A stretch of DNA of 37,579 nt from a virus (IMGVR_UViG_2541047812_000004:1-37579), one strand, 5' to 3'. Shown: positions 2,949 through 34,414, counted from the stretch's first letter. Translations and numbers: made by a program. The notes: generated by a model not told the origin, from the letters alone.

Positions 2949-3245
2949 ATGCTGACGAAAGAACCATCATTTGCATCGCTGCTGGTAAAACAAAGCCCGG
3001 CAATGCACTACGGTCACGGCTGGATCATGGGTGAGGATGGTAAACGCTGGCATCCGTGCCGTTCACAAGATGAATTGCTGTCTGAATTGACCACGGGGAA
3101 ACGGAGAAAGTCAAAATGTATGCAGCGGAAAGTGAAGTGGTTTATCAGTTTCGTTACAGAGGGGAGAGTTATTCAGTACCTGAAGATGATTTGCTCTGTT
3201 GTTATCCGTCGTTGTCGGGCGATGGCAGTTACTTTTTCACGCTAA
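2949..3245 (+). CDS. Hypothetical early protein (extent uncertain; 3' part overlaps next gene)
   Basis: ATG at 2949 with RBS GAGGTG 4 nt upstream, immediately after cII stop. The last ~130 nt overlap the 3116-3340 ORF in another frame, so the true C-terminus is doubtful. Confidence 0.4.
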   Translation: MLTKEPSFASLLVKQSPAMHYGHGWIMGEDGKRWHPCRSQDELLSELTTGKRRKSKCMQRKVKWFISFVTEGRVIQYLKMICSVVIRRCRAMAVTFSR

Positions 3246-3340
3246 AGGATGGGACGTTTTTACGGGGAGAGCAGGTTAAAGAGACGATACGAAAAAATGT
3301 ATCTCCTCTTGAACGTTACCGTAAGAACAAAGAACGATAG
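3116..3340 (+). CDS. Hypothetical early protein (74 aa)
   Basis: ATG at 3116 with GGAG RBS (3103-3106); compact co-directional operon. Confidence 0.55.
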   Translation: MYAAESEVVYQFRYRGESYSVPEDDLLCCYPSLSGDGSYFFTLKDGTFLRGEQVKETIRKNVSPLERYRKNKER

Positions 3341-3362
3341 TTGCGTTTTGGGGATATGAATT

Positions 3363-3704
3363 ATGGCAATTAATGGCGCTGCGGCAACTGTTCCATTAAG
3401 CCCCGGTGAACGCCTGAATGGACTTAATCACATTGCGGAGTTAAGGGCGAAAGTTTTTGGCCTGAATATTGAGTCAGAGCTTGAGCGGTTTATTAAAGAT
3501 ATGCGTGATCCACGGGATATCAATAGCGAACAAAATAAACGGGCACTGGCTGCCATATTCTTTATGGCAAAAATTCCAGCTGAACGTCATAGCATCAGCA
3601 TTAATGAGCTGACCACTGACGAAAAGCGGGAGTTGATTAAAGCAATGAATCATTTTCGTGCAGTGGTGAGCTTATTTCCCAGACGGCTAACCATGCCGAA
3701 TTAA
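3363..3704 (+). CDS. Hypothetical early protein (113 aa)
   Basis: ORF in co-directional early operon; no motif recognised. Confidence 0.55.
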   Translation: MAINGAAATVPLSPGERLNGLNHIAELRAKVFGLNIESELERFIKDMRDPRDINSEQNKRALAAIFFMAKIPAERHSISINELTTDEKRELIKAMNHFRAVVSLFPRRLTMPN

Positions 3705-8684: not shown

Positions 8685-10763
8685 ATGCTAATTTTAGAAA
8701 CAACATATAAGTTTTTATCCACCTCGTTAAGGCTTTCTATGAGCAGTTTCTTTTATATCCAGCCTGATTTAAAAAATGATACAAATGCTGATTTTTTGAA
8801 CTCTGTTGAAGAGTATGCAAATACTCATCAAATGCAGATTTATGCAATAATGAATCCCTTAGGGGAAAATAAATATAAATATAATAGAGACGATGTTCTT
8901 ATTATATTAAGCCCAGGATACCAATTAGCGTTCGTTGCTTTTAGTGATGATGTTGATGGTATACAAAATTTTATAGAGGATTTTATAGAGGATTTAGGTT
9001 CCTTATCAGATAAATACAATTATAAAGATACAATTGGTAGGCCTCGAGCGTGGAAAGATAAACTTGTTACTGAGTGCTCATACGCTGATTTTAGTTTCGG
9101 TAATCTTGATAAGTTTTTTGATGAAATTAAAATTATTGATGGTGTTCTGGCTAAAAAGAGTGAGTTAATTATCTCTCTCTTAACAGGAAGTATCAATAAT
9201 ATTGATAAAGTTAAAGGCAATGTGCCAGATAATATACTTGACAAGGTTAAGCAAAAGATAATTTTGTTTGACGGAGATCAGACAAGGTTTGTATACCAAA
9301 AATTTGATAAGAAAAAAGTTGTTATTCAAGGATTATCAGGTACTGGTAAGACTGAACTATTGCTTCATAAGTTAAAGGAAATATATTTGGATAAGGAGAA
9401 TTTAAATAGTAAAATAATGTTTACGTGCCATAATAAAATATTGGCAGACAATATGAGAAAGAGAATTCCAGAGTTTTTCAACTTTATGAAGGTCGAGCAG
9501 CAGATTAGCTGGAATGAAAGACTTTGGTGTGTTAATGCATGGGGTTCTCAATATGACGGTAACTCTGGCGCATATAGATATATATGTGAATATTATGGAT
9601 TAAGTTTCTATCGTTTTAGCTATGTGATGACTTTCGATAAAGTATGTAGAATTGCGTTGGATGAACTAAAAAAGTTGCCAAGCAATGAATTTAAGCATTG
9701 CTTTGACTTTATGTTAATAGATGAAAGTCAGGATTTCCCATCAAGCTTCATTGAGCTTTGCGAGCTGGTAACTCGTGATACTATTTATGTTGCTGGTGAT
9801 ATATTTCAAAGTATATTTGATACTAATATCTCTAATGAGATACAGCCAGACTTTCTTCTAAGTAAATGCTACCGAACAGATCCAAGGACATTGATGTTTG
9901 CTCATGGTTTAGGTATGGGGCTATTTGAAGAAGAACCATTAACTTGGTTAATGAATAATGAATGGGAAGCCTGCGGTTATATAGTTGATGAATCGGTAAA
10001 AGGTAAGTTAAGATTAAAGAGAGAGCCACTAAGAAGATTTGAAGATGTAACGGATGCAAAAATACATAGTGTGGAATTAATTAATTCCACATATGAAACT
10101 GAAGAAGAGAATATTTTGGGTATACTCCGTAAAATTAAGGAGGAGAATCCTACTGTTTTGGCTGATGATATTGGTATCATCTTTATTGATCAGGCTAAGA
10201 CTATATTTAAAATCGCAGACAGACTTGAATTGAGCGTGCCTAGATTATTAGGATGGAAGGTTAATAAGGCATATGAAACAAAAGAAAAAATTAAAGACAC
10301 GTTATTCATAAGTAATAAAAACCATGTAAAAGGGTTGGAGTTTCCTTTTGTTATCTGTGTTACTCGTGATATTATCAAGAGCCATTCTTATCGAAATTCA
10401 CTATATATGATGTTAACTCGTTCCTTTATTAAGTCATATTTGCTTCTGGGAGATGGGAATAAAGACTTACAGAATGAGATAGAAAAGGGGTTAGATGCTA
10501 TTAATGAGCATGGTTATATGGATATTAACGTTCCACCGAGAGAAGTCATTTCAAAAATAAGAACAACAATCAAATATGATGAGAAAAATATATCTCATTA
10601 TGATTTGGTTACAAAGGTCTTCGATGACTTACAGATTGAGCCGATATTTCGTACATCCCTGTATAATACAGTAAAAACAATCATGCCTGATTCTTTTGAT
10701 GTCGATAAAATTACTACTCTTGTTCGGTTCAACTATGAAATAATGCTTCAGGAGTCGAAGTGA
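8685..10763 (+). CDS. SF1 (UvrD/Rep-like) helicase-family P-loop NTPase with unknown ~200-aa N-terminal domain; candidate defence protein
   Basis: Helicase motifs read from translation: I GLSGTGKT, II FMLIDESQDF, III VAGDIFQSIF, IV CYRTDPRTL, VI VKGLEFPFVIC. AT-rich. Alternative start ATG 8739 (MSSFFY..., RBS TAAGG) may be the true start. Confidence 0.75.
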   Translation: MLILETTYKFLSTSLRLSMSSFFYIQPDLKNDTNADFLNSVEEYANTHQMQIYAIMNPLGENKYKYNRDDVLIILSPGYQLAFVAFSDDVDGIQNFIEDFIEDLGSLSDKYNYKDTIGRPRAWKDKLVTECSYADFSFGNLDKFFDEIKIIDGVLAKKSELIISLLTGSINNIDKVKGNVPDNILDKVKQKIILFDGDQTRFVYQKFDKKKVVIQGLSGTGKTELLLHKLKEIYLDKENLNSKIMFTCHNKILADNMRKRIPEFFNFMKVEQQISWNERLWCVNAWGSQYDGNSGAYRYICEYYGLSFYRFSYVMTFDKVCRIALDELKKLPSNEFKHCFDFMLIDESQDFPSSFIELCELVTRDTIYVAGDIFQSIFDTNISNEIQPDFLLSKCYRTDPRTLMFAHGLGMGLFEEEPLTWLMNNEWEACGYIVDESVKGKLRLKREPLRRFEDVTDAKIHSVELINSTYETEEENILGILRKIKEENPTVLADDIGIIFIDQAKTIFKIADRLELSVPRLLGWKVNKAYETKEKIKDTLFISNKNHVKGLEFPFVICVTRDIIKSHSYRNSLYMMLTRSFIKSYLLLGDGNKDLQNEIEKGLDAINEHGYMDINVPPREVISKIRTTIKYDEKNISHYDLVTKVFDDLQIEPIFRTSLYNTVKTIMPDSFDVDKITTLVRFNYEIMLQESK

Positions 10764-11389
10764 ATAAAGAGTATTATTTTAGTCTGGAGCAGGCTCAGTG
10801 TGACTGGGCCTTTAAGCCAATACGAACAAAGAAAGATGTTATTGAAATATTGATGAGATTAATCAAACTAATTTCTGTTTATACAGAACCATGCGAACAG
10901 AATGTGGTTGGGAGAGTGAAACTTCATATATCAAAGATGAGTCGAGTTTTCTTCTTTAGTGAAAATAAATATTATTCTCTTGCATTTCCTTTTTTTCTTG
11001 ATGAAATTAATGGTCAGATTTTATTTAGTAGTCCAGAAATGGAGTGTATAGATAGTTTTGTAACATCAAAAGTCATTTCTTTTATTAATGACTCCTCTTA
11101 TTTGAATAGTTCTTCTTGGGCCTTTTTTGAACCATTGTTAAATATTGAAGAACATCAAGGTATTCCCGGGTTTTGGCCTTTTCTTAGAATGTTGTTAACT
11201 TATGAGGATGGTTATATTAGATATGATGTCGATGAAGAAAGGGCTAATGGAAATCGTCATCCATTATATCATTTCGACGTCTTTTATTCTAATCCGCCAA
11301 CGTTTAAAATTGGTTTGAATGCACATTATACAAATGATGAAATGATTGATTTTCTTGATAGGGAAACTGATTGTCGTTATTTGAAATGA
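10760..11389 (+). CDS. Hypothetical protein (209 aa), partner of the helicase-like gene
   Basis: GTG start at 10760 overlaps upstream stop (GTGA) with AGGAG 5 nt upstream; translational coupling. AT-rich; no recognisable motif. Confidence 0.6.
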   Translation: MNKEYYFSLEQAQCDWAFKPIRTKKDVIEILMRLIKLISVYTEPCEQNVVGRVKLHISKMSRVFFFSENKYYSLAFPFFLDEINGQILFSSPEMECIDSFVTSKVISFINDSSYLNSSSWAFFEPLLNIEEHQGIPGFWPFLRMLLTYEDGYIRYDVDEERANGNRHPLYHFDVFYSNPPTFKIGLNAHYTNDEMIDFLDRETDCRYLK

Positions 11390-12457: not shown

Positions 12458-14223
12458 CAAAAAATCTCCACAATATTACTGGTATTGGCGGACTCGCCCT
12501 GCAGTGGTTCGTTAAACAGTGCGTGCATTGTTGCCCAGGCCAGATCGGCGTGGCTGGCTTCTTCGCTGCGGCTGGCTTCATAGGTCGGGCGGTTGCCACT
12601 GGCGGTGGTGGAGCGACGGATTGCCATAAAGGACTGCGCTATGTCGGTGTGTCCGGCGTCAAACTCCAGACGGCGGTGGCTGATAATGTCGTAGGCCTTG
12701 AGTACCAGGGCGTTTTTAACGTTGGGGTTGTAGACAAACTCCCGGACGGCAGGAAAGAACGCTTTCACGTTCTCGTAAACTCCGTGACCGACACCTGTCG
12801 AGTCGATACCGATATAGGTCACGTTGTACTGTTCGGTCAGTTTTTTGATGGCGTCAGCCTGGGCGCGGAAGTCCATCCCGCGCCACTGGTAACGCTCAAG
12901 AATGCGAAACTTACCGCCTGGCACGGCTGGCGGTGCCACCACCACGCATCCGGCGCTGTCGCCGTTCTGCGTACCTTTTGCCGGGTCATAACCGATCCAC
13001 ACTTCGCGCCAGCCAAACGGGCGCAGGGCCAGAGCATGAAAGTCGGTCCAGACTTCCCAACTGTCCACCATGCACGCCTGCAGCTCGCTGAGCGGGAACA
13101 CGGACGCGAGATCGTCCACGAACTCACACATCAGCAGGTTCTGGTATTCGTCCGGGCTGTATTCCATGCGCAACTGGTCAAGGTCGAACAGGTTACAGCC
13201 GCCGCGCACCGCATCTTCCACGGTGACTATCTGGCGGTATTGCCCGTCTGCGCACAGCAGGCCGGGGGCCAGATTGCTGTGGGACAGGTCGATGTCCACC
13301 TTGTCAGCTTTGTTGCGTCCACGGTTGAACAGCGCACCGGACCAGAACGGATAAGCACTGTGGGTCAGGCTGGATGGCGTGGAAAAATAGGTTTGTCGCC
13401 ATTTCTTGTGAATAGCCATCCCGGAAGCCACTTTGCGCAGCTCCTGGAATTTCGGTATCCAGAAATATTCATCCAGATACAGGTTGCCGTGATAACTCTG
13501 GGCCGTGCGGGCATTGGTGCCGAGGAAGTAAAGCGTGGCTCCGTTAGGAAGCACCATCGGATCGCCTTTTAGCTCCACCTCGACTTCTTTGGCGAAGTCG
13601 ATGATGTATTGTTTAAAGACGTGGGCCTGAGCTTTACTGGCAGAAAGGAAAATCTGGTTACGTCCAGTAAGCAGGGCGTCAATCAGGGCTTCACGGGCAA
13701 AATAGAAGGTCGCGCCGATCTGGCGAGACTTCAGCAGGTTGCGGATGCGGTTGGTTTTTCCGGCTTCCCACCAGTGGCGCTGGTAGTTGAACATGGAGGA
13801 ATGGAAGATTTCTTCCAGCTTCTCAATCTGTTCATCGGTGAAGACATTCTTTTCCGGCTGACGGCGTGGGCCTTTGTTGCGGTTGGCGACGTTAGGGTTT
13901 AAGTCGGCTTCGTTGCCGCCATTGTTAAACTTGCCGATCCGCGCGTGGCGCTCTGACTGGCGCGCCAGCAGGTCAATCTCTTTGAAATCTTTCCCTTCTT
14001 TGTGCTCCTTCATAATGAGCTGGCAGTAGCGGGCGGCGGTGGTGAGCTGCATCTGATCCAGTGGCCCATAGTCACCCCACTTGTCGCGTTTCTTCCAGCT
14101 GTGAACAGTTGCAACTTTCTCGCCCAGCATTTCAGCAATGCGGGCTACGCGGTATCCCTGAAAGTACAGCAGCATGGCCTGCCGACGGGGATCGAGATCT
14201 GCGGGTGTCAGTGTGGTGTTCAT
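12457..14223 (-). CDS. P: Terminase large subunit (P2 gpP-like)
   Basis: 588 aa; ATG at 14223; position divergent from O as in P2. Confidence 0.85.
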   Translation of the reverse strand: MNTTLTPADLDPRRQAMLLYFQGYRVARIAEMLGEKVATVHSWKKRDKWGDYGPLDQMQLTTAARYCQLIMKEHKEGKDFKEIDLLARQSERHARIGKFNNGGNEADLNPNVANRNKGPRRQPEKNVFTDEQIEKLEEIFHSSMFNYQRHWWEAGKTNRIRNLLKSRQIGATFYFAREALIDALLTGRNQIFLSASKAQAHVFKQYIIDFAKEVEVELKGDPMVLPNGATLYFLGTNARTAQSYHGNLYLDEYFWIPKFQELRKVASGMAIHKKWRQTYFSTPSSLTHSAYPFWSGALFNRGRNKADKVDIDLSHSNLAPGLLCADGQYRQIVTVEDAVRGGCNLFDLDQLRMEYSPDEYQNLLMCEFVDDLASVFPLSELQACMVDSWEVWTDFHALALRPFGWREVWIGYDPAKGTQNGDSAGCVVVAPPAVPGGKFRILERYQWRGMDFRAQADAIKKLTEQYNVTYIGIDSTGVGHGVYENVKAFFPAVREFVYNPNVKNALVLKAYDIISHRRLEFDAGHTDIAQSFMAIRRSTTASGNRPTYEASRSEEASHADLAWATMHALFNEPLQGESANTSNIVEIF

Positions 14224-14269
14224 GGCACAAACCTACAGCCTTGAATGAAGGCTTTCCCCGCCTGCGGTT

Positions 14270-14287
14270 TGTGTGGTTGTCGGTACA
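14270..14287. promoter_or_regulatory. Ogr-type late promoter activator site (TGT-N12-ACA) in divergent P/O region
   Basis: tgtgtggttgtcggtaca = TGT-N12-ACA dyad between divergent P (start 14223) and O (start 14365). Confidence 0.6.
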
Positions 14288-14364
14288 AATACCGCGCATT
14301 GTTTCACTGCCCCCATCACCGCAACCATAAGGCTCCAGTAAGTTTTTCTAACGGAGCACGGCTC

Positions 14365-15198
14365 ATGACAGTGAAAGCAAAGCGTTTTCGCATCGGGGTG
14401 GAAGGTGCCACCACCGACGGACGCGAAATCCAGCGTGAATGGCTGGAACAGATGGCAGCCAGCTACAACCCGGCGGTGTATACCGCGCTGATTAACCTTG
14501 AGCACATCAAGTCTTATCTGCCGGACAGCACCTTTAACCGCTACGGCAAGGTGACGGCGCTGTTTGCTGAAGAAATCACGGAAGGTCCGCTGGCAGGCAA
14601 GATGGCGCTGTATGCCGACGTTGAGCCAACGGAGTCCCTGGTGGAGCTGGTGAAAAAAGGCCAGAAATTATTCACCTCTATGGAAGTCAGCCCGAAGTTC
14701 GCTGATACGGGCAAAGCCTACCTGGTTGGCCTGGCTGCCACTGATGATCCAGCCAGTCTGGGTACGGAAATGCTGACATTCAGCGCCAGTGCAGCCCAAA
14801 ACCCGCTGGCAAACCGCAAGCAGAATCCCGCTAATCTTTTTACCGCTGCAGAGGAAACGGTGATCGAACTGGAAGAAGTCCAGGATGACAAACCGTCCCT
14901 TTTTGCCCGCGTCACGGCGCTGTTCACCAAAAAAGAGCAGTCAGACGATACCCGGTTCTCTGATGTGCATAAGGCCGTGGAGCTGGTCGCCACTGAGCAG
15001 CAAAACCTGAGTGCGCGCACCGAAAAATCCCTGTCTGAACAGGAAGAACGCCTGTCTGAGCTGGAGACAGCCCTGCAGGCACAGCTGACCGCCTTTAACG
15101 AACTGGTGAATAAGCTGAGTCATGAAGACAGCCGCCAGGACTACCGCCAGCGTGCAACAGGCGGTAACGCCCCCGCTGACACTCTGACCAATTGCTGA
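14365..15198 (+). CDS. O: Capsid scaffolding protein (P2 gpO-like)
   Basis: ATG at 14365 (MTVKAKRFRIGVEGATTDGREI), RBS ACGGAG; upstream part of the track ORF rejected. Confidence 0.85.
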   Translation: MTVKAKRFRIGVEGATTDGREIQREWLEQMAASYNPAVYTALINLEHIKSYLPDSTFNRYGKVTALFAEEITEGPLAGKMALYADVEPTESLVELVKKGQKLFTSMEVSPKFADTGKAYLVGLAATDDPASLGTEMLTFSASAAQNPLANRKQNPANLFTAAEETVIELEEVQDDKPSLFARVTALFTKKEQSDDTRFSDVHKAVELVATEQQNLSARTEKSLSEQEERLSELETALQAQLTAFNELVNKLSHEDSRQDYRQRATGGNAPADTLTNC

Positions 15199-15214
15199 TG
15201 GAGCACAAAACCTG

Positions 15215-16273
15215 ATGAAGAAGAATACCCGCTTTGCTTTTAACGCTTACCTGCAGCAGCTGGCGCGTCTGAACGGTGTGGCAGTTGAAGAACTGTCCAG
15301 CAAGTTCACCGTGGAGCCGTCCGTGCAGCAGACACTGGAAGACCAGATCCAGCAGTCCGCCGCTTTCCTGACGCTGATTAACGTCACGCCAGTGACTGAG
15401 CAGTCCGGTCAGCTGCTGGGGCTGGGTGTTGGCAGCACCATTGCTGGAACCACTGATACCACCGCGAAAGAGCGTGAGCCTGTCGATCCGACGCTGATGG
15501 TCGATGTGGAATACAAATGCGAGCAGACCAACTTTGACACGGTGCTGACCTACGCGAAGCTGGATCTGTGGGCGAAGTTTCAGGATTTCCAGGTGCGCAT
15601 CCGTGACGCCATCGTGAAACGTCAGGCACTGGACCGCATCATGATCGGCTTTAACGGCGTGAAGCGTGCGAAAACCTCCAACCGTAGCGAAAACCCGCTG
15701 CTGCAGGATGTGAACAAAGGCTGGTTGCAGAAAATCCGTGAGGATGCACCGGATCACGTCATGGGCAGCACCACCACGGGCGGTGAAACCACACCGGGTG
15801 CGGTGAAAGTCGGGAAAGGTGGAGAATATGCCAACCTGGACGCCGTGGTGATGGATGCGGTCAATGAGCTTATCGACGTGGTCTACCAGGACGATGACGA
15901 TCTGGTGGTGATTTGCGGTCGTGAGCTGCTGTCTGACAAGTATTTCCCGCTGGTCAACAAAGAGCAGGAAAACAGTGAAAAACTGGCTGCCGATATGATC
16001 ATCAGTCAGAAACGCATGGGTGGCCTGCAGGCCGTGCGTGCGCCGTTCTTCCCGCCGAATGCGCTGCTGATCACCCGTCTGGATAACCTGTCCATCTACT
16101 GGCAGGAAGACACCCGCCGCCGTTCAGTTATCGACAACCCGAAACGTGACCGGATTGAAAACTTTGAATCCGTTAACGAAGCCTATGTGGTTGAGGACTA
16201 CCGCTGCGCCGCACTGGTGGAAAACATCCAGATTGGCGATTTCAGCGCCGCTGCAGCAGAAACCGGAGCGTAA
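15215..16273 (+). CDS. N: Major capsid protein (P2 gpN-like)
   Basis: Translation aligns along its length with recalled P2 gpN (KFTVEPSVQQTL..., VGKGGEYANLDA..., ENLSIYWQED...). Confidence 0.9.
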   Translation: MKKNTRFAFNAYLQQLARLNGVAVEELSSKFTVEPSVQQTLEDQIQQSAAFLTLINVTPVTEQSGQLLGLGVGSTIAGTTDTTAKEREPVDPTLMVDVEYKCEQTNFDTVLTYAKLDLWAKFQDFQVRIRDAIVKRQALDRIMIGFNGVKRAKTSNRSENPLLQDVNKGWLQKIREDAPDHVMGSTTTGGETTPGAVKVGKGGEYANLDAVVMDAVNELIDVVYQDDDDLVVICGRELLSDKYFPLVNKEQENSEKLAADMIISQKRMGGLQAVRAPFFPPNALLITRLDNLSIYWQEDTRRRSVIDNPKRDRIENFESVNEAYVVEDYRCAALVENIQIGDFSAAAAETGA

Positions 16274-16276
16274 CCC

Positions 16277-16927
16277 ATGAGCCTGAGTCCCGCACGGCAG
16301 CATCGCCTGCGCGTTCAGGCTGAACAGGCCGCCCGCGAGGGCGGCAGTGTTCGCCACGCGTCGGGCTATGACCTGATGCTGCTGCAACTGGCGGAAGACC
16401 GCCGCCGTCTCAAGGGCGTTCAGTCCACGGTCAAAAAAGCGGAAATCAAGGTGGAGCTGCTGCCGAAGTACGCCGCCTGGGCAGAGGGCGTCCTGGCTGC
16501 CGGAGGCACTCAACAGGATGACGTGCTGATGTACGTGATGCTGTGGCGCATTGATGCCGGAGATTATGCCGGGGCGCTGGAGATCGGGCGTCATGCCCTG
16601 CGTCATGGCTGGGTGATGCCGCTGGGTAACCGCAACATGCAGACCGTGCTGGCAGAGGAAATGGCAGACGCGGCGCAGAGCGCAATGCTTGCCGCCACCG
16701 GCTTCGATGTCGATCTGTTGCTGCAGACGCTGGAGCTGACAGACGGTCTGGATATGCCGGACCAGTCACGGGCGCGTCTGCATAAAGCGATTGGCGCTGT
16801 CCTGAGTGAAAGCAATCCGGCTTCCGCCCTTAATCATCTCAACCATGCGTTACAGCTCGATCCCCGCTGTGGCGTGAAAAAAGACAAACAGCAGCTGGAG
16901 CGCAGACTGCGCAATGACAGCCGCTGA
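16277..16927 (+). CDS. M: Terminase small subunit (P2 gpM-like)
   Basis: Resembles recalled P2 gpM (MYVMLWRIDAGDYAGALEI...); gene order. Confidence 0.85.
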   Translation: MSLSPARQHRLRVQAEQAAREGGSVRHASGYDLMLLQLAEDRRRLKGVQSTVKKAEIKVELLPKYAAWAEGVLAAGGTQQDDVLMYVMLWRIDAGDYAGALEIGRHALRHGWVMPLGNRNMQTVLAEEMADAAQSAMLAATGFDVDLLLQTLELTDGLDMPDQSRARLHKAIGAVLSESNPASALNHLNHALQLDPRCGVKKDKQQLERRLRNDSR

Positions 16928-17022
16928 CAGAACGTGCCCCCGCGCACGGGCGGCACGGGGTGGCGAAAGGCACTGCCACATCAAAACCCCGTCCACCGCC
17001 CTTTATTTCAGGAGAAAGCAGC

Positions 17023-17487
17023 ATGAAGTTTGTTGCGCCAGAACAGGCACCGGAACAGGCGGAAATCATCAGGAATACGCCGTTCTGGCCTGATGTGGAC
17101 CTGTCGGAGTTTCGCAGTGTCATGCGCACTGACGGCACGGTGACGCAGCCGCGTTTAAAGCAGGTTGCCCTGTCGGCAATTTCGGAGGTCAACGCAGAGC
17201 TGTATGAGTTTCGCAGACGCCAGCAGATGCTGGGATATGCCTCGCTGGCAGAGGTTCCGGCAGAACAGCTGGACGGGAAAAGTGAGCGCATTCAGCACTA
17301 TTTCAACGCGGTTTACTGTTGGGCACGCGCCATGCTCAACGAACGTTACCAGGACTATGACGCCACGGCATCCGGTGTGAAGCGGGGCGAGGAACTGGCG
17401 GAAGCCAGCGGTGATTTGTGGCGTGACGCCCGCTGGGCCATCAGCCGGGTGCAGGATGCGCCGCACTGCACAGTGGAGCTTATCTGA
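17023..17487 (+). CDS. L: Capsid completion protein (P2 gpL-like)
   Basis: ATG at 17023 with AGGAG RBS (17010-17014); order after M. Confidence 0.8.
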   Translation: MKFVAPEQAPEQAEIIRNTPFWPDVDLSEFRSVMRTDGTVTQPRLKQVALSAISEVNAELYEFRRRQQMLGYASLAEVPAEQLDGKSERIQHYFNAVYCWARAMLNERYQDYDATASGVKRGEELAEASGDLWRDARWAISRVQDAPHCTVELI

Positions 17488-17690
17488 TGAAAGTGCGTGC
17501 GCATCAGTATGACACGGTGGACGCGCTTTGCTGGCGTCATTACGGGCGCACGCAGGGTGTCACGGAGCAGGTACTGAAGGCAAATCCGGGGCTTGCCGAA
17601 TATGGCCCCTTTTTACCTCACGGGCTGCAGGTGGAGCTGCCGGACATTCCGACCACCACCACCGTGCAGACCGTCCAGCTATGGGACTGA
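17487..17690 (+). CDS. X: Tail protein X (P2 gpX-like)
   Basis: 67 aa, ATG overlaps L stop; size and position match P2 X. Confidence 0.8.
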   Translation: MKVRAHQYDTVDALCWRHYGRTQGVTEQVLKANPGLAEYGPFLPHGLQVELPDIPTTTTVQTVQLWD

Positions 17691-17693
17691 ATT

Positions 17694-17909
17694 ATGACGC
17701 TTGAGCGAATCAGCGCCTTTATCACGTATTGCATCGCCGTCGTGCTGGCCTGGCTGGGCGATTTGTCCATCAAGGATGCCTCAACGCTGGGCGGCCTGAT
17801 GATCGGTGTGCTGATGCTGGCTATCAACTGGTACTACAAACACAAAGCCTACCAGCTTCTGCGCGACGGGCAGATCTCGCGGGAGGACTATGAATCCATC
17901 AATCGTTAA
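17694..17909 (+). CDS. Putative pinholin (71 aa, two predicted TM segments)
   Basis: Two hydrophobic stretches (ISAFITYCIAVVLAWLG and LGGLMIGVLMLAINWYY) with charged C-terminus; immediately upstream of the endolysin. Confidence 0.65.
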   Translation: MTLERISAFITYCIAVVLAWLGDLSIKDASTLGGLMIGVLMLAINWYYKHKAYQLLRDGQISREDYESINR

Positions 17910-18405
17910 ACGCTGCCTTGTCGGGGCCGTGCTGGCTATTGCTGCCACGCTGCCGGGTTTTCAGCAGCTTCACACCTCCGTGGAGGGGCTGAAACTGATT
18001 GCCGATTACGAGGGCTGTCGTCTGCAGCCGTATCAGTGCAGCGCGGGTGTCTGGACCGACGGCATTGGTAATACATCGGGCGTCATTCCAGGCAAAACCA
18101 TTACGGAACGACAGGCAGCGGAAGGGCTGATCTCCAATGTGCTGCGTGTGGAGCGGGCACTGGAAAGGTGTGTGAAACAACAGCCGCCGCAAAAGGTGTA
18201 TGACGCGGTGGTGTCGTTTGCCTTCAACGTGGGAACGGGCAATGCCTGCAGTTCCACGCTGGTGAAATTGCTCAACCAGCGGCGCTGGGCGGATGCGTGC
18301 CGACAGTTGCCGCGCTGGGTTTATGTGAAAGGTGTGTTTAATCAGGGGCTGGATAACCGCCGTGCGCGGGAGATGGCCTGGTGCCTTAAAAGAGCTGGAC
18401 TATGA
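17890..18405 (+). CDS. SAR-type endolysin (T4-lysozyme-like muramidase with N-terminal signal-anchor-release segment)
   Basis: N-terminal weakly hydrophobic Gly/Ala-rich segment (CLVGAVLAIAATLPG) followed by catalytic E-x8-C/D-x5-T region (YEGCRLQPYQCSAGVWTDGIGNT). Confidence 0.75.
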   Translation: MNPSIVKRCLVGAVLAIAATLPGFQQLHTSVEGLKLIADYEGCRLQPYQCSAGVWTDGIGNTSGVIPGKTITERQAAEGLISNVLRVERALERCVKQQPPQKVYDAVVSFAFNVGTGNACSSTLVKLLNQRRWADACRQLPRWVYVKGVFNQGLDNRRAREMAWCLKRAGL

Positions 18406-18830
18406 CGCGTGCGCTGGCAGTAGTGGTGGCGCTGGCACTCGTTACGCTGGGCTGGCAGTCGTGGCGGCTTAACAGCGCCAGCCACACCATCGAAACGCAG
18501 CGCGCGGCGCTGAAAAGTAAAGCGCAAGAACTGACGAAGAAAAACAGCCAGCTGATCGGTCTGTCCATTCTGGTTGAAACCAACAACCGGGAGCAGGCGC
18601 GGCTCTACGCTGAAGCAGAACAGACCAGCGCACTGCTGAGACAACGACAACGCCGGATCGAGGAACTGAAACGTGAGAACGAGGATTTACGCCGCTGGGC
18701 TGATACTCCTTTGCCTGCTGACATTATCCGGCTGCGGGAACGTCCGGCACTCACCGGAGGTGCAGCTTACCGTCAGTGGTTGTCCGCGAGTGACGCCGTG
18801 TCGGCTGGAGCAGGCAGCGCCGCGCACTAA
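18402..18830 (+). CDS. lysB: Spanin inner-membrane subunit (LysB / Rz-like)
   Basis: N-terminal TM segment then coiled-coil-like charged region; position after the endolysin. Confidence 0.75.
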   Translation: MTRALAVVVALALVTLGWQSWRLNSASHTIETQRAALKSKAQELTKKNSQLIGLSILVETNNREQARLYAEAEQTSALLRQRQRRIEELKRENEDLRRWADTPLPADIIRLRERPALTGGAAYRQWLSASDAVSAGAGSAAH

Positions 18831-18963
18831 CGGTGATCTGAACGCATTGCTGGATGAAACGGAGGCCGCCTGGGCGGTCTGTGCAGACAAAGTGGACATG
18901 ATTATTGCGTGTCAGGAGCGAAACAGTGAACAAACCACAGTCCCTGCGCCACGCCCTCAATAA
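18673..18963 (+). CDS. lysC: Spanin outer-membrane lipoprotein subunit (LysC / Rz1-like)
   Basis: GTG start; lipobox LLTLSGC; begins inside lysB in another frame, as in P2 lysB/lysC. Confidence 0.7.
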   Translation: MRTRIYAAGLILLCLLTLSGCGNVRHSPEVQLTVSGCPRVTPCRLEQAAPRTNGDLNALLDETEAAWAVCADKVDMIIACQERNSEQTTVPAPRPQ

Positions 18964-19357
18964 AGCGGTGCCTTATGTCCGCAATAATCCGGACAAACTG
19001 CATCTGTTTGTGGATAACGGTTCGCTGGTTGCTACGGGGGCCAGCTCCATGTCATGGGAGTACCGTTACACCCTGAACGTGGTGATTGAGGATTTCAGCG
19101 GCGACCAGAATCTGCTGATGGCCCCGGTTTTGCTGTGGCTGCGGGATAACCAGCCCGATGCCATCAATAACCCAGCGTTACGGGAAAAGTTATTCACCTT
19201 TGAGGTGGATATTCTGCGCAATGATGTCTGTGATATCAGCCTGAACCTGCAACTGACGGAGCGTGTGCTGGTCAGCACTGACGGCAGTGTGTCGAGTGTT
19301 GAAGCTGTAGCGGAACCCGATGAACCTGAAGAAATGTGGACGGTAAAACGTGGCTGA
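18926..19357 (+). CDS. R: Tail completion protein (P2 gpR-like)
   Basis: Similar to recalled P2 gpR (FVDNGS..., YRYTLNVV..., PVLLWLRDNQPD). Start placed at GTG 18926 with AGGAG RBS; ORF-track start 18905 is a TTG. Confidence 0.75.
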   Translation: MNKPQSLRHALNKAVPYVRNNPDKLHLFVDNGSLVATGASSMSWEYRYTLNVVIEDFSGDQNLLMAPVLLWLRDNQPDAINNPALREKLFTFEVDILRNDVCDISLNLQLTERVLVSTDGSVSSVEAVAEPDEPEEMWTVKRG

Positions 19358-19796
19358 ACTGCAGAAGGTGGACGACTGGCTGAGTGCCTTGCTGGCGAAT
19401 CTGGAGCCAGCCGCAAGAAGCCGCATGATGCGCCAGCTGGCGCAGGAACTACGCCGGACACAGCAGCAGAATATCAGAATGCAGCGCAATCCAGATGGCA
19501 GCAGTTATGAACCGCGACGGGTAACAGCACGCAGCAAAAAAGGCCGCATCAAACGTCAGATGTTTACAAAGCTGCGCACCACAAAATACCTGAAAACTGC
19601 CGCCAGCGCCGACTCTGCCAGCGTGCAGTTTGAAGGCAAGGTACAGCGCATTGCCCGTGTTCACCATTACGGCCTGCGTGATCGCGTCAGTCGCAAAGGA
19701 CCGGAGGTCCGTTACGCAGAGCGTCGCCTGCTGGGTGTAAATGATGATTTATACTTTTTAACACGCCGCATTTTATTGCAATGGTTGGCGAGGTAG
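19350..19796 (+). CDS. S: Tail completion protein (P2 gpS-like)
   Basis: GTG start overlapping R stop; size about 148 aa as for P2 S. The last ~20 codons run into the AT-rich cargo boundary. Confidence 0.75.
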   Translation: MAELQKVDDWLSALLANLEPAARSRMMRQLAQELRRTQQQNIRMQRNPDGSSYEPRRVTARSKKGRIKRQMFTKLRTTKYLKTAASADSASVQFEGKVQRIARVHHYGLRDRVSRKGPEVRYAERRLLGVNDDLYFLTRRILLQWLAR

Positions 19797-19853
19797 AGTT
19801 GGTTGACTTTTTGTAGTTCCTACTCTAACCTCACCGATTGATTTTAGGTTATA

Positions 19854-21608
19854 TCAATCCCAAAATAAATTATTATTAATATTGCTCATATCGAAAGTGA
19901 AGTTCTTTTCTGTAATAGTTTCGTACCTTTGTTCATAGATTATTTTTACATATCTAAACCCCTGTGTTACAGAGCGAATTTTTCGGGGTTTTGATGCAAG
20001 CATAACAAGTATTTCAAATACTTTATCAAGATAGTTGTGGGTGTGTTCAACTAAAAGGGGGGTAAATTTACCACCTTTTCCAGAATGGACTATGTTATTT
20101 CTTGTTCTATAAATTCTTCTGAGTTGCCATTCTAATCTTAACTTATGGTTATCTAAAGTTGATTTAATTGACTCCGGGGATGAAACTATGTTTTTTATAT
20201 ACTCGAAACGATCTGAAAGCAATGTGTAATCACGAAATTTAGCGGATAAAGATTCCCTTACTGATTCGTATTCAGGAAGAATCATTATATTGGCTAGTTT
20301 GTGTTTCGCTTTTGCTCCAGGTATTCCTTTTAAATGTGAGTTTAGTATGTGTCTATTCCATAACAGCAGGTCTCGGGTAAGGTTGTCAATTAAGGAGTCT
20401 ATATATGTAATATTCAGGAATGGAATTATACTTGCAGTAATATGTTCTATTGTTGCTTGATCCTTGGATTTAGTGTCTGTCGGCACTAATGATTCAAGAG
20501 CTATCCATAGATTTAAAAGCTGATTTTCAACATTTTCACTTTTTAATGCCATTGAATGTAATTGAATACTTCTCAAGAACTTGGCAAATGAACTATTTTC
20601 TAGAGAAAACTCAGACATCAATGATTCAAGACGTTTCTTGGCCTTTTCATGCTTTAAGTCCTTGCATTTTTTCATGGGGTTAAGTCTTTCAGCCACTTTC
20701 AAAGAGTCTGTATCAGTTATAACGAAAGCTTCATTTGACCAAGTAGGTTTATCTTTATGATGATAAATATTTAAAAAGGATGATGCTAATTTAAGTAGGT
20801 TTTCAGCATTCTCTCTTGCTGAATAAGAATCAAAAGCTTCTATATTTGATACGCAAACTATCTTCTTTCGTTGCAGATTTCTAAAAAAAACATGTTGGGA
20901 AAATTCTTCTGGTGGTTCTTTCTCAACAGACAAAGAGAGTCTTTCGAAAGTTGGCTCTGCGCCTAAAAACACTGGTTCAACAATAAAATATATTTTGTAT
21001 TTCTTTTTTTCGAGTTTTATTAAATCAAAAAAAGAAGAGACATCAGTGTTATTTGATATTTTATTATTCCCATAATAAAAAAATTGCTGGGTTAAATTCT
21101 TAAGATTATGTTGGCTAAAGCCAATGTAGAGTAATAAACTGATATAATTTCTTGTTAGCTTGCGTATGATGCTTCTTTCCCAGTTAGGGGATGATAACTC
21201 TTGGGTGATAAGTTCTTCACTTTTTTCTTTATATAATTTGGGTGGTAATTGAATGACCAGCATTTCAATTATTGAGCTTCTCTCTTTAGGGCTTATGTTA
21301 GTATTTTTTAGTTTGTTGAGAAAAGCTTGGTAAGCATCGCCTAATAAATCTTGTGCTACTTTATCACATGACAAGTTATGTATTAATTCTGCGGTTAAAT
21401 GTTCAATATTTTTAGGCTGAATAATACCATCCTCAACATCTTTAATTGTATTTAAAGTTTCTACTCCAATTGTTGGGGTATTCATCACTGAGGGTTTGTA
21501 TGTGTCCAGTGTATAGTCAAATAGCATTTCATCCAGTAATTGCGCAAAATATACTAGTGCTTTACAAGTGTCTGGGCAATCCCATTTATACAAAGAACGA
21601 AATTTCAT
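19854..21608 (-). CDS. Large AT-rich cargo protein (584 aa) with C-terminal HEPN-like Rx4-6H motif; candidate abortive-infection/defence protein
   Basis: Uninterrupted 584-codon ORF, ATG at 21608, opposite strand to flanking S and V, in the P2 orf30 position. C-terminal segment RRIYRTRNNIVHSG fits the HEPN Rx4-6H signature. Confidence 0.7.
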   Translation of the reverse strand: MKFRSLYKWDCPDTCKALVYFAQLLDEMLFDYTLDTYKPSVMNTPTIGVETLNTIKDVEDGIIQPKNIEHLTAELIHNLSCDKVAQDLLGDAYQAFLNKLKNTNISPKERSSIIEMLVIQLPPKLYKEKSEELITQELSSPNWERSIIRKLTRNYISLLLYIGFSQHNLKNLTQQFFYYGNNKISNNTDVSSFFDLIKLEKKKYKIYFIVEPVFLGAEPTFERLSLSVEKEPPEEFSQHVFFRNLQRKKIVCVSNIEAFDSYSARENAENLLKLASSFLNIYHHKDKPTWSNEAFVITDTDSLKVAERLNPMKKCKDLKHEKAKKRLESLMSEFSLENSSFAKFLRSIQLHSMALKSENVENQLLNLWIALESLVPTDTKSKDQATIEHITASIIPFLNITYIDSLIDNLTRDLLLWNRHILNSHLKGIPGAKAKHKLANIMILPEYESVRESLSAKFRDYTLLSDRFEYIKNIVSSPESIKSTLDNHKLRLEWQLRRIYRTRNNIVHSGKGGKFTPLLVEHTHNYLDKVFEILVMLASKPRKIRSVTQGFRYVKIIYEQRYETITEKNFTFDMSNINNNLFWD

Positions 21609-26304: not shown

Positions 26305-26533
26305 CCTCAATTAGTATTGGTTCGCCTTTCTCATTAATTGTTAGCTCCATGCCCTGAGGAATTTCTGTAATAGTAAAAAACCAGTTGTCCTCCGGTAATT
26401 CAATAGCCCCGGTCACGTCATGAAGACCGGGGATTACTTCAGTCAAAGTAACTGGATTAAACAGGCGCACAATAAACCCTCCAGGAAAAAGCATTTGATG
26501 ATGGTCTGCCGTCGTACATCTGGCAGCGGGCAT
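26273..26533 (-). CDS. Possible alternative tail-fibre assembly gene (inverted cassette, may be truncated)
   Basis: Convergent with G, overlapping at the 3' ends, inside the invertible segment; only 86 aa and it overlaps the alternative fibre cassette, so integrity is doubtful. Confidence 0.35.
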   Translation of the reverse strand: MPAARCTTADHHQMLFPGGFIVRLFNPVTLTEVIPGLHDVTGAIELPEDNWFFTITEIPQGMELTINEKGEPILIEVNQSQGIQAK

Positions 26534-26786
26534 AAAAGCCGGTATTTGTTACCTGATCATCCACGATCATTGAAACGTGAACATTATTAGGTGTGCTCTC
26601 GTAATCCGTTCTTATTCTTTCCGCGATACTGATAAAACGTGAAAGTTTAGGCAGTGCAATTGGGTAAACAACTTTAGCCAGTCCATTATCATTAGATCCA
26701 CCGGTTCCAAATACTTCTATTGCACCATCTGACCAGCGTATCCATGCACCATTGGCATTAGCTCCTCGCTGAATGACATATCTGGC
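26457..26786 (-). other. Alternative tail-fibre C-terminal cassette (promoterless, fused to H only after inversion)
   Basis: Minus-strand frame reads through the right crossover site (FLNVGLGE...) and continues about 110 codons; it shares the LGLGE junction with H at the left site; no independent RBS or start expected. Confidence 0.55.
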
Positions 26787-26812
26787 TTCTCCCAAACCAA
26801 CGTTTAAGAAAA
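26787..26812. repeat. hix/gix-like recombination site (right crossover site)
   Basis: ttctcccaaacc-aa-cgtttaagaaaa; inverted relative to the site at 25149-25174 (shared 12-bp half-site ggtttgggagaa on opposite strands). Confidence 0.65.
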
Positions 26813-26867
26813 TGCAGCGATTACGACTAACTGGCATCATCCCCGATTTTTATTCAAGGAGATGATC

Positions 26868-27434
26868 ATGCTTATTGGTTATGTACGCGTGTCAACAAAT
26901 GACCAGAACACCGATTTGCAACGTAATGCACTGAATTGCGCGGGATGTGAGCGGATTTTTGAGGACAAAATCAGTGGCACTAAGTCCGACAGACCGGGGC
27001 TTAAAAAACTGCTTAGGACACTATCGGCAGGAGACACTCTGGTTGTCTGGAAGCTGGACAGGTTGGGGCGCAGTATGCGGCATCTTGTTACGCTGATAGA
27101 AGAGTTGCGCCAGCGTGGTGTGAATTTCCGAAGCCTGACTGACAGTATTGATACCAGCACCCCAATGGGCCGTTTCTTTTTTCATGTCATGGGGGCCTTG
27201 GCTGAAATGGAACGCGAACTGATAGTTGAACGTACCAGGGCAGGGCTGGCTGCAGCTCGTGTTAAAGGCAGAGTAGGTGGACGCCGTCCTAAGTTGACCA
27301 GCGAACAGTGGGCACAGATTGGGCGTTTACTCGAGGCCGGAGAATCAAGACAGCGTATTGCACTGATTTTTGATGTGGGCGTTTCTACCATTTATCGAAA
27401 ATTTCCGGCAAATAAGAGCAATGAATCTCCCTGA
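26868..27434 (+). CDS. Serine recombinase DNA invertase (Pin/Gin/Hin/Cin family)
   Basis: MLIGYVRVSTNDQNTDLQRNAL... with catalytic Ser in YVRVST is very similar to recalled e14 Pin; C-terminal HTH. Start at ATG 26868 with AAGGAG RBS. Confidence 0.9.
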   Translation: MLIGYVRVSTNDQNTDLQRNALNCAGCERIFEDKISGTKSDRPGLKKLLRTLSAGDTLVVWKLDRLGRSMRHLVTLIEELRQRGVNFRSLTDSIDTSTPMGRFFFHVMGALAEMERELIVERTRAGLAAARVKGRVGGRRPKLTSEQWAQIGRLLEAGESRQRIALIFDVGVSTIYRKFPANKSNESP

Positions 27435-32835: not shown

Positions 32836-33317
32836 TGATGGTGCTTGGATTGTACGTGTTTATGCTGCGCACCGTGCCGTATCAGGAACTGCAGTATCAG
32901 CGCAGCTGGCGACATGCGGCTAACAGCCGGGTAAATCGTCGTCCGTCCACGCAGTTTCTGGGACCGGATAACGACATGCTGACGCTTTCTGGTGTTCTTA
33001 TGCCGGAGATAACAGGCGGCAGGCTGTCGTTGCTGGCACTGGAGCTGATGGCAGAACAGGGGAAAGCATGGCCTCTGATTGAAGGCAGCGGCACGATTTA
33101 CGGCATGTATGTGATTGAGGGACTGAATCAGACTAAAACGGAGTTTTTCCGCGACGGTATGCCGCGCCGGATTGAGTTCACCCTGTCGCTCAAACGGGTG
33201 GATGAATCCCTGTCCGATATGTTCGGTGATCTCAGTGCGCAACTGAATAATCTGCAGGGAACGGCAACATCTGCCTTAAGCGATATCAGTAAAACGGTGG
33301 GAGGGCTTCTGTCGTGA
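32832..33317 (+). CDS. U: Tail protein (P2 gpU-like)
   Basis: 161 aa, ATG overlaps T stop; order T-U-D. Confidence 0.85.
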   Translation: MMMVLGLYVFMLRTVPYQELQYQRSWRHAANSRVNRRPSTQFLGPDNDMLTLSGVLMPEITGGRLSLLALELMAEQGKAWPLIEGSGTIYGMYVIEGLNQTKTEFFRDGMPRRIEFTLSLKRVDESLSDMFGDLSAQLNNLQGTATSALSDISKTVGGLLS

Positions 33318-34414
33318 ATTTCAGCTCTGAACTGCTTAACAAAGGCAACAAAACACCGGCATTCAGCATCAGTATTGAAGGCAGGGATATCACCACTGTG
33401 CTGGACAACCACCTGATGGGGCTGACGCTGACGGATAACCGGGGATTTGAAGCGGACCAGCTTGATCTGGAGCTTGACGACGCCGATGGAAAAATCGTGC
33501 TGCCGCGCCGTGGTGCGGTCATTACGCTGGCGCTGGGCTGGAAGGGGCAGCCGCTTTTCCCGAAAGGGGCATTCACGGTGGACGAGATTGAACACACTGG
33601 CGCACCGGACCGCCTGACTATCCGGGCGCGAAGTGCTGATTTTCGTGAAGCGCTGAATACCCGCCGTGAAAAATCGTGGCACAAGACCACGGTCGGGGAA
33701 GTGGTGAAGGAAATAGCTGCGCGTCACAAACTGAAGATGGCACTGGGTAAAGACCTGTCGGATAAACCCGTGGATCATATAGACCAGACTAATGAGAGTG
33801 ACGGCAGTTTTCTGATGCGGTTGGCGCGCCAGTACGGTGCTATTGCGTCGGTGAAAAATGGCAATCTGTTATTCATCCGACAGGGACAGGGCAAAAGCGC
33901 CACAGGTAAACCACTGCCAGTGATCACTATCACACGCAAGGACGGCGACAGTCACCGATTTACCCTGGCAGATCGCGGAGCCTACACGGGCGTAATTGCC
34001 AGCTGGTTGCATACCCGTGAACCCGCGAAGAAAGAAAGCACTACAGTGAAGCGTAAGCGCAGGACCAAGAAGCATAAGAAAGAGCCGGAAGCGAAGCAGG
34101 GCGATTACCTGGTGGGTACGGATGAAAACGTGCTGGTACTTAATCGCACTTATGCCAACCGTAGCAACGCCGAACGAGCGGCAAAAATGCAGTGGGAACG
34201 CCTGCAACGCGGTGTTGCGTCATTCTCGCTGCAACTGGCAGAAGGACGGGCAGATCTTTATACGGAAATGCCTGTGAAAGTCAGTGGCTTTAAACAGCCG
34301 ATAGATGATGCGGAATGGACCATTACGACTCTGACACATACCGTCAGCCCGGATAACGGTTTTACGACCAGTCTGGAGCTTGAAGTGAGGATTGATGATT
34401 TCGAAATGGAATGA
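33314..34414 (+). CDS. D: Tail protein (P2 gpD-like)
   Basis: 366 aa, GTG start overlapping U stop; order. Confidence 0.85.
   Translation: MNFSSELLNKGNKTPAFSISIEGRDITTVLDNHLMGLTLTDNRGFEADQLDLELDDADGKIVLPRRGAVITLALGWKGQPLFPKGAFTVDEIEHTGAPDRLTIRARSADFREALNTRREKSWHKTTVGEVVKEIAARHKLKMALGKDLSDKPVDHIDQTNESDGSFLMRLARQYGAIASVKNGNLLFIRQGQGKSATGKPLPVITITRKDGDSHRFTLADRGAYTGVIASWLHTREPAKKESTTVKRKRRTKKHKKEPEAKQGDYLVGTDENVLVLNRTYANRSNAERAAKMQWERLQRGVASFSLQLAEGRADLYTEMPVKVSGFKQPIDDAEWTITTLTHTVSPDNGFTTSLELEVRIDDFEME

Follow-up and report, generated by a model that had tools for sequence, protein, structure and literature searches.

We found that the lysis genes of this prophage are likely to form the lysis cassette, four genes long, that is usual in P2-like prophages of the Fels-2/Elveevirus type, in which a holin of the HP1 family would trigger a signal-anchor-release (SAR) endolysin of the P1 Lyz type by the mechanism proposed below, followed by two spanins. 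The stretch of viral DNA that was analyzed (37,579 nt; hereafter, the window) is a complete P2-like prophage, extending from an integrase gene (1-1209) to a point beyond gene D, for late control (33314-34414); by analogy with a close relative, ogr presumably comes right after D. The prophage adjoins a transporter gene of the aspartate:alanine-exchanger family, which corresponds to ybjL by synteny with a close relative. The cassette is real, ordinary and already described, and it contains nothing new; the account that follows assigns its two central genes to their families and weighs how they might act.

The cassette is bounded upstream by the tail protein gene gpX (17487-17690, + strand; Pfam Phage_tail_X, 117 bits; 61% identity to P2 X), which is itself preceded on its 5' side by gpL (16960-17487; identified by Pfam search, 40% identity to P2 gpL), and downstream by the tail completion genes gpR and gpS (18905-19796, + strand; Pfam P2_Phage_GpR and Phage_tail_S; 54 and 38% identity to P2 R and S, respectively). 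Its first gene encodes the 71-aa holin, a probable pinholin (17694-17909, + strand), and the second the 171-aa endolysin, a glycoside hydrolase family 24 (GH24) lysozyme (17890-18405, + strand). The two ORFs overlap by 20 nt, and a Shine-Dalgarno sequence, GGGAGG, can be read within the 3' end of the holin gene, just 5' of the endolysin ATG (17881-17886, + strand). An earlier note on this DNA had proposed a 71-aa protein with two transmembrane (TM) segments followed by an endolysin with a Gly/Ala-rich N-terminal segment, and both proved to be genuine, overlapping ORFs at the coordinates given there. The ATG of the i-spanin gene lysB (18402-18830, + strand) overlaps the endolysin stop codon (ATGA). 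Its product scored 174.4 bits against TIGR03495 (cut-off 92.75) and is 35% identical to P2 LysB over 75 aa in the C-terminal half. The o-spanin gene lysC (18673-18963, + strand) lies in the +1 frame relative to lysB, begins inside lysB and ends 133 nt past it, and is thus overlapped rather than embedded; LysC scored 124.7 bits against NF038368 (cut-off 27), matched Pfam LysC, is 42% identical to P2 LysC, and carries a lipobox, LSGC, with Cys21.

All gene junctions from gpL to gpS are tight, and in a consensus scan of positions 14000-20000 neither promoters nor terminators on the + strand of this block exceeded the shuffled expectation. Taken with the 20-nt overlap of hol and lys and the ATGA junction of lys and lysB, this fits a single co-transcribed late operon, and the cassette would be transcribed as part of O-N-M-L-X-hol-lys-lysB-lysC-R-S. 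Of 5426 complete E. coli genomes, 1041 (about a fifth) contained a region of 1.6 kb spanning the cassette at ~98% identity, and the holin gene adjoined the endolysin gene in all 80 of the closest IMG/VR loci; therefore, these are conserved genes and not chance ORFs. The closest viral-contig loci are all 96-99% identical, which makes them useless for covariation, and they were used to count short and long forms of the junction between lys and lysB (see below).

In P2, the genes Y-K-lysA-lysB-lysC are found between X and R, i.e., at the same late-operon position that the window's cassette occupies between gpX and gpR. Flanking genes and spanins are P2 homologs, P2 LysB and LysC sharing the overlapped architecture of those of the window, and the earlier description of a P2 backbone with P2-type lysB/lysC spanins was therefore accurate. 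The two genes between them differ. P2 Y belongs to Pfam Phage_holin_3_2 (PF04550) and has three hydrophobic stretches, whereas the window's holin has two and gave no PF04550 match in the Pfam search. P2 K, which resembles lambda R, is soluble and has no N-terminal hydrophobic segment, whereas the window's endolysin has one and showed no significant similarity to K (BLASTP E = 0.016 over 24 residues). A counterpart of P2 lysA is absent from the window's cassette. Since Y and K are unrelated to the window's pair and lysA is missing, the claim that the cassette is not of the P2 holin/lysozyme type holds. The same note saw in this a modular exchange of lysis genes. Nonhomologous replacement inside a P2-type late operon is a fair description. 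Any exchange may have gone in either direction, because a pair of this kind is also present in HP1, which belongs to the Peduoviridae as a distant member, and mosaicism of this sort was already known. Among 508 phage records with a gpX homolog, 129 carry the P2 Y-type holin and 83 carry the window type.

The endolysin matched Pfam PF00959 (Phage_lysozyme) with 138 bits, and its best relative of solved structure was P1 Lyz (1XJT, 4.3e-26), ahead of R21 of phage 21 (3HDE, 2.2e-17). Residues 9-24 (CLVGAVLAIAATLPGF; 17914-17961, + strand) form an uncharged run of 16 residues, C9-LVGAVLAIAATLPGF, that follows K7 and R8 and is predicted to be the SAR segment. Its Kyte-Doolittle value is 2.11 and its Gly/Ala/Thr content 44%; in hydrophobicity and Gly/Ala content it falls among the anchors of three characterized SAR endolysins, namely P1/P7 Lyz, HP1 Lys and R21. 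Downstream lies the catalytic region, Glu41-8X-Cys50-5X-Thr56, with a putative caging cysteine, Cys43 (18010-18057, + strand), as placed by alignment with E42, C44, C51 and T57 of P1/P7 Lyz; the motif EGCRxxPYxCxAGVWTDGIGNT is conserved. The E-8X-C/D-5X-T triad and the regulatory disulfide have been described for P1 Lyz (PMC3556154, citing Xu et al., 2005), in which the catalytic Cys is kept in a disulfide until activation (PMC3556154, citing Xu et al., 2005). P1/P7 Lyz (1XJT, inactive; 1XJU, active) has in common with the window's endolysin the triad E-8X-C-5X-T, a caging Cys two residues past the Glu, and an SAR segment that contains a Cys. The proteins are 36-37% identical, and the window's endolysin does not have the 12-residue insertion of the C-terminal lobe. 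On these sequence features, the enzyme is very likely a P1-type SAR endolysin, and its three cysteines together with the P1 triad predict activation by disulfide isomerization rather than by the mechanism of R21.

The distribution of the anchor cysteine bears on whether the N-terminal segment stays on the enzyme. Among homologs drawn from 1.84 billion representatives clustered at 50% identity, a Cys occurred in the TM segment of all 20 that had an N-terminal TM segment and both active-site cysteines, and in none of the five TM-bearing homologs with another active-site pattern (Fisher p = 1.9e-5, a value that ignores relatedness and shared ancestry). Such co-occurrence is expected if the segment remains on the mature enzyme and supplies the isomerizing thiol, and it argues against a cleaved signal peptide. 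That alternative would have the N-terminus act as a Sec signal peptide cut after A16-I17-A18, releasing a soluble, secreted enzyme whose timing of lysis is independent of anchor release. The K7 R8 n-region, short h-region and A-X-A motif have the look of a signal peptide, and SignalP predicted one for the homologous HP1 Lys (PMC7312051). However, the specific conservation of the segment's Cys with the Cys43/Cys50 pair is sensible only if the segment stays attached, and a constitutively secreted, active lysozyme would cause premature lysis; we regard cleavage as highly improbable. Another 31 homologs without an N-terminal TM segment still have both active-site cysteines. Some of these are gene fragments; others seem to be GH24 enzymes that have a catalytic Cys and are truly soluble, and these were perhaps derived from SAR ancestors, a derivation that has been proposed for phiCbK (PMC3556154).

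Regulation might instead follow R21, with the SAR domain refolding into the catalytic domain and repositioning the catalytic Glu, and with no role for a disulfide. R21 is a significant homolog (2.2e-17) with the same order of SAR segment and GH24 domain, and the earlier note had drawn its analogy here. Yet R21 has the catalytic Asp44 and Val37 at the positions of Cys50 and Cys43 and no Cys in its SAR domain, and the window's endolysin scored better against P1 Lyz and fits the three-cysteine pattern. This makes R21-like control very unlikely, and we retain the P1 Lyz type for the enzyme.

The 71-aa protein is, by its profile matches, a class II holin of the HP1 family. It scored 36.7 bits against Pfam PF16080 (Phage_holin_2_3, the HP1 holin family; gathering score 28.8) over residues 6-57, and matched PHROG 20, 'holin,' at 1.9e-26; its match to PF04971 (P21 S) was 23.2 bits, below the gathering score of 26. 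PF16080 was found in nearly all of its database homologs, many of which are named 'HP1 family phage holin,' the name that PGAP also gives to the window's protein. Direct comparisons with HP1 Hol were not significant (BLASTP E = 0.19; hhalign probability 4.6%; ~22% identity in a MAFFT alignment), so that membership in the HP1 family derives from the Pfam HMM only. The first transmembrane domain (TMD1, aa 6-22, ISAFITYCIAVVLAWLG; 17709-17759, + strand) is the more hydrophobic helix, with a Kyte-Doolittle value of 2.12 and 35% Gly/Ala/Ser/Thr. TMD2 (aa 29-48; 17778-17837, + strand) has a value of 1.74 for aa 29-45 and contains G34xxxG38; across 16 homologs, G34 never varies and G38 hardly does. 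Leu42 takes the third position of what would be a glycine-zipper-like face of small residues. Counts of Lys/Arg (one at the N-terminus, one in the loop and five in the C-tail) fit the N-in/C-in topology of a class II holin. No dual start was found, since the N-terminus reads MTLERIS and Met1 is the only Met before residue 36.

Phage 21 likewise encodes a 71-aa, two-TMD class II holin, a GH24 SAR endolysin and then spanins, in that order. BLASTP of the holin against S21 returned no alignment. A profile of 16 holin sequences compared with S21 by hhalign gave only weak similarity, with a probability of 63% and E = 6.9e-5 and with both TMDs covered. S21 carries a GxxxSxxxG motif. Its TMD1 has a Kyte-Doolittle value of 0.49 and 65% Gly/Ala/Ser/Thr and is releasable, as opposed to 2.12 and 35% for the window's TMD1, and it begins MKSM, giving a Met1/Met4 dual start, whereas the window's holin has no second start codon. 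The contrast between the two TMD1 helices is drawn by a simple hydropathy measure, not by a topology experiment. Since TMD1 of the window's holin does not look releasable and the dual start is missing, the S21 mechanism is not simply transferable to it. The pairing had been likened to S21/R21, which was right in kind, but phage 21 is not the closest model: PF04971 was matched below threshold, S21 was not aligned by BLASTP, and P1 Lyz outscored R21. HP1 Hol/Lys and P1 Lyz are closer models.

Haemophilus phage HP1 (Peduoviridae, Hpunavirus) is P2-like, as is the window's prophage, and its Hol and Lys were studied experimentally in 2020 and interpreted as a likely pinholin and SAR endolysin (PMC7312051). 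HP1 Hol is a small, two-TMD PF16080 holin without a dual start, encoded directly 5' of the endolysin gene and overlapping it, and HP1 Lys is a GH24 SAR enzyme that agrees with the window's endolysin in its Glu, its caging and catalytic cysteines, its Thr and the Cys of its anchor; a LysB-like gene lies 3' in HP1 as well. The two systems differ in that the HP1 cassette sits after the tail tube gene, whereas that of the window lies between gpX and gpR, and in that the weaker helix is TMD1 in HP1 Hol but TMD2 in the window's holin. In P1, the pinholin gene lydD is located 3' of lyz, and the gene for LydA, the main holin, belongs to another operon that is not linked to it (PMC9025707). LydD of P1/P7 was also tried as a relative of the window's holin; no similarity was found and the two are unrelated.

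From its family membership and gene pairing, the holin is a probable pinholin, and small holes are favored with moderate confidence. Pinholin behavior has precedent: S21 holes are reported to be too small for soluble endolysin or beta-galactosidase (summarized in PMC6139136), and HP1 Hol killed cells without lysing them, gave no leakage of beta-galactosidase and was needed for phage release (PMC7312051). However, pairing with a SAR endolysin is no proof of small holes, since P1 Lyz works also with the canonical holin LydA (PMC9025707). The holin might accordingly make large, nonspecific holes, with the SAR endolysin just responding to depolarization, as with LydA and Lyz in P1. Consistent with this, P1 Lyz functions both with LydA and with the pinholin LydD (PMC9025707), TMD1 of the window's holin matches the P2 Y helices in hydrophobicity and is unlike a SAR domain, and the protein has no dual-start antiholin. 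There was also a BLASTP match of the holin to TMD2-TMD3 of P2 Y (E = 1e-4, in a single comparison). We rejected this weak match as compositional: it was accompanied by no PF04550 match and was lost in the profile comparison, where the probability was 2.8% for P2 Y and 63% for S21. Further against large holes, the Pfam search pointed to the HP1 family and, below threshold, to P21 S, with no match to the P2 Y family; HP1 Hol gave no beta-galactosidase leakage (PMC7312051); and a holin of this family adjoined a SAR-type endolysin in 80 of the 80 closest loci. Large holes are thus a minor possibility, and we keep the pinholin assignment as probable.

Within that assignment, the route of triggering may differ from that of S21. 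In this enterobacterial branch of the HP1 holin family, which is very common, the firm hydrophobicity of TMD1, the weaker TMD2, the lack of a dual start and the lack of an accessory membrane ORF in the short form of the cassette would be compatible with a mechanistically distinct class of pinholin, in which, for example, TMD2 is the mobile helix or triggering depends on concentration only, without an antiholin. The authors of the HP1 study likewise speculated that TMD2, rather than TMD1, was the mobile helix (PMC7312051). We consider such a distinct class quite unlikely at present.

By homology, the four products could act as follows. The 171-aa lysozyme would be exported by Sec without cleavage and stay tethered to the inner membrane, on its periplasmic side, through its weakly hydrophobic anchor (aa 9-24), and a disulfide between Cys43 and the catalytic Cys50 would keep it inactive. 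Meanwhile, the 71-aa class II holin would accumulate in the membrane and depolarize it at a set time, most likely via small holes, hole size being the step of this mechanism in which we have least confidence. Upon depolarization the anchor would leave the bilayer, and the thiol of Cys9 would attack the Cys43-Cys50 disulfide and free Cys50, which would then complete the Glu41-Cys50-Thr56 triad, as shown for P1 Lyz. After degradation of the wall, the LysB/LysC spanin would fuse the inner and outer membranes.

The same gene set occurs in Fels-2, SopEPhi, RE-2010, Klebsiella phage 4LV2017 and Escherichia phage Cartapus (Felsduovirus/Elveevirus), with holins 80-100% identical and endolysins up to 98% identical to those of the window. 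Identical holins are encoded by phage Cartapus (Elveevirus) and by Klebsiella prophages, and those of Fels-2, SopEPhi and RE-2010 are 80% identical. Fels-2 and most close relatives have, in addition, a pair of small membrane ORFs separating lys from lysB, which the window and Cartapus do not have. In Fels-2, the ORFs are 77 and 49 aa long and lie in an insert of ~380-430 bp (3211-3586 of the Fels-2 locus, L006), whereas in the window lysB is directly 3' of lys (18402-18405). An insert of the same size was present in 54 of the 77 closest IMG/VR loci in which both genes were located. The two small ORFs were compared with P2 LysA and were not similar to it; their products may be lysis regulators. 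The Fels-2 endolysin is annotated in RefSeq (NC_010463; L006 2697-3206) from a GTG, which leaves the SAR segment truncated. Starting from an ATG located 33 nt upstream, which overlaps the holin stop codon as in the window, restores MNPSIVKRCLVVAVLAIAATLPGF with the conserved Cys9.

Other regions of the prophage were also noted. In P2-like prophages, anti-phage cargo is known to cluster in the slot between gpS and gpV, which corresponds to P2 orf30. In the window this slot holds a 584-aa ORF (19854-21608, - strand; GC ~0.33) that matched the ApeA defense-protein model of PADLOC (1.4e-13) and had no Pfam or NCBIfam match, and in a close relative the same slot holds an AAA ATPase and a DUF4435 protein. 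A second low-GC island (~0.33) lies between a replication gene and the portal gene (8685-11389, + strand). It encodes a 692-aa, UvrD-like SF1 helicase (PADLOC 'Helicase,' PDLC03002, 2.9e-28; weak GajB matches) and a 209-aa protein without a Pfam or PADLOC match, and is probably defense cargo. Just past the presumed tail-fiber and fiber-assembly genes, which were assigned by position and by a close relative, a serine recombinase/invertase gene (26862-27434, + strand; 190 aa, Resolvase and HTH_7) is accompanied by an opposite-strand ORF of 127 aa with no Pfam match. This region (26457-27434) may be a tail-fiber inversion switch; the recombinase is a pseudogene in a close relative.

Much of the cassette's description exists in the records. 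PGAP labels its genes 'HP1 family phage holin,' 'lysozyme,' 'LysB' and 'LysC'; the Fels-2 record already describes the holin ('2 transmembrane domains; putative holin') and points out that the endolysin resembles P1 Lyz; and phage Midge, a distant P2-like relative, has a cassette of this kind with the annotation 'holin class II | SAR endolysin.' The KP12 study recognized this endolysin as a P1-Lyz-like SAR enzyme and sought a partner pinholin (PMC9902359). P2-like phages share two lysis modules in circulation, one being the alternative to the other; the finding correctly tells them apart, and it matters little beyond annotation. As a refinement, it specifies the endolysin as a predicted disulfide-regulated SAR enzyme of the P1 Lyz type and the holin as class II of the HP1 family, names that correct the loose labels 'lysozyme,' 'secretory protein' and 'lysis protein' as well as truncated starts such as that of the Fels-2 RefSeq endolysin. 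Being so common in prophages of E. coli, Salmonella and Klebsiella, the cassette would lend itself to studies of the triggering of HP1-family holins.
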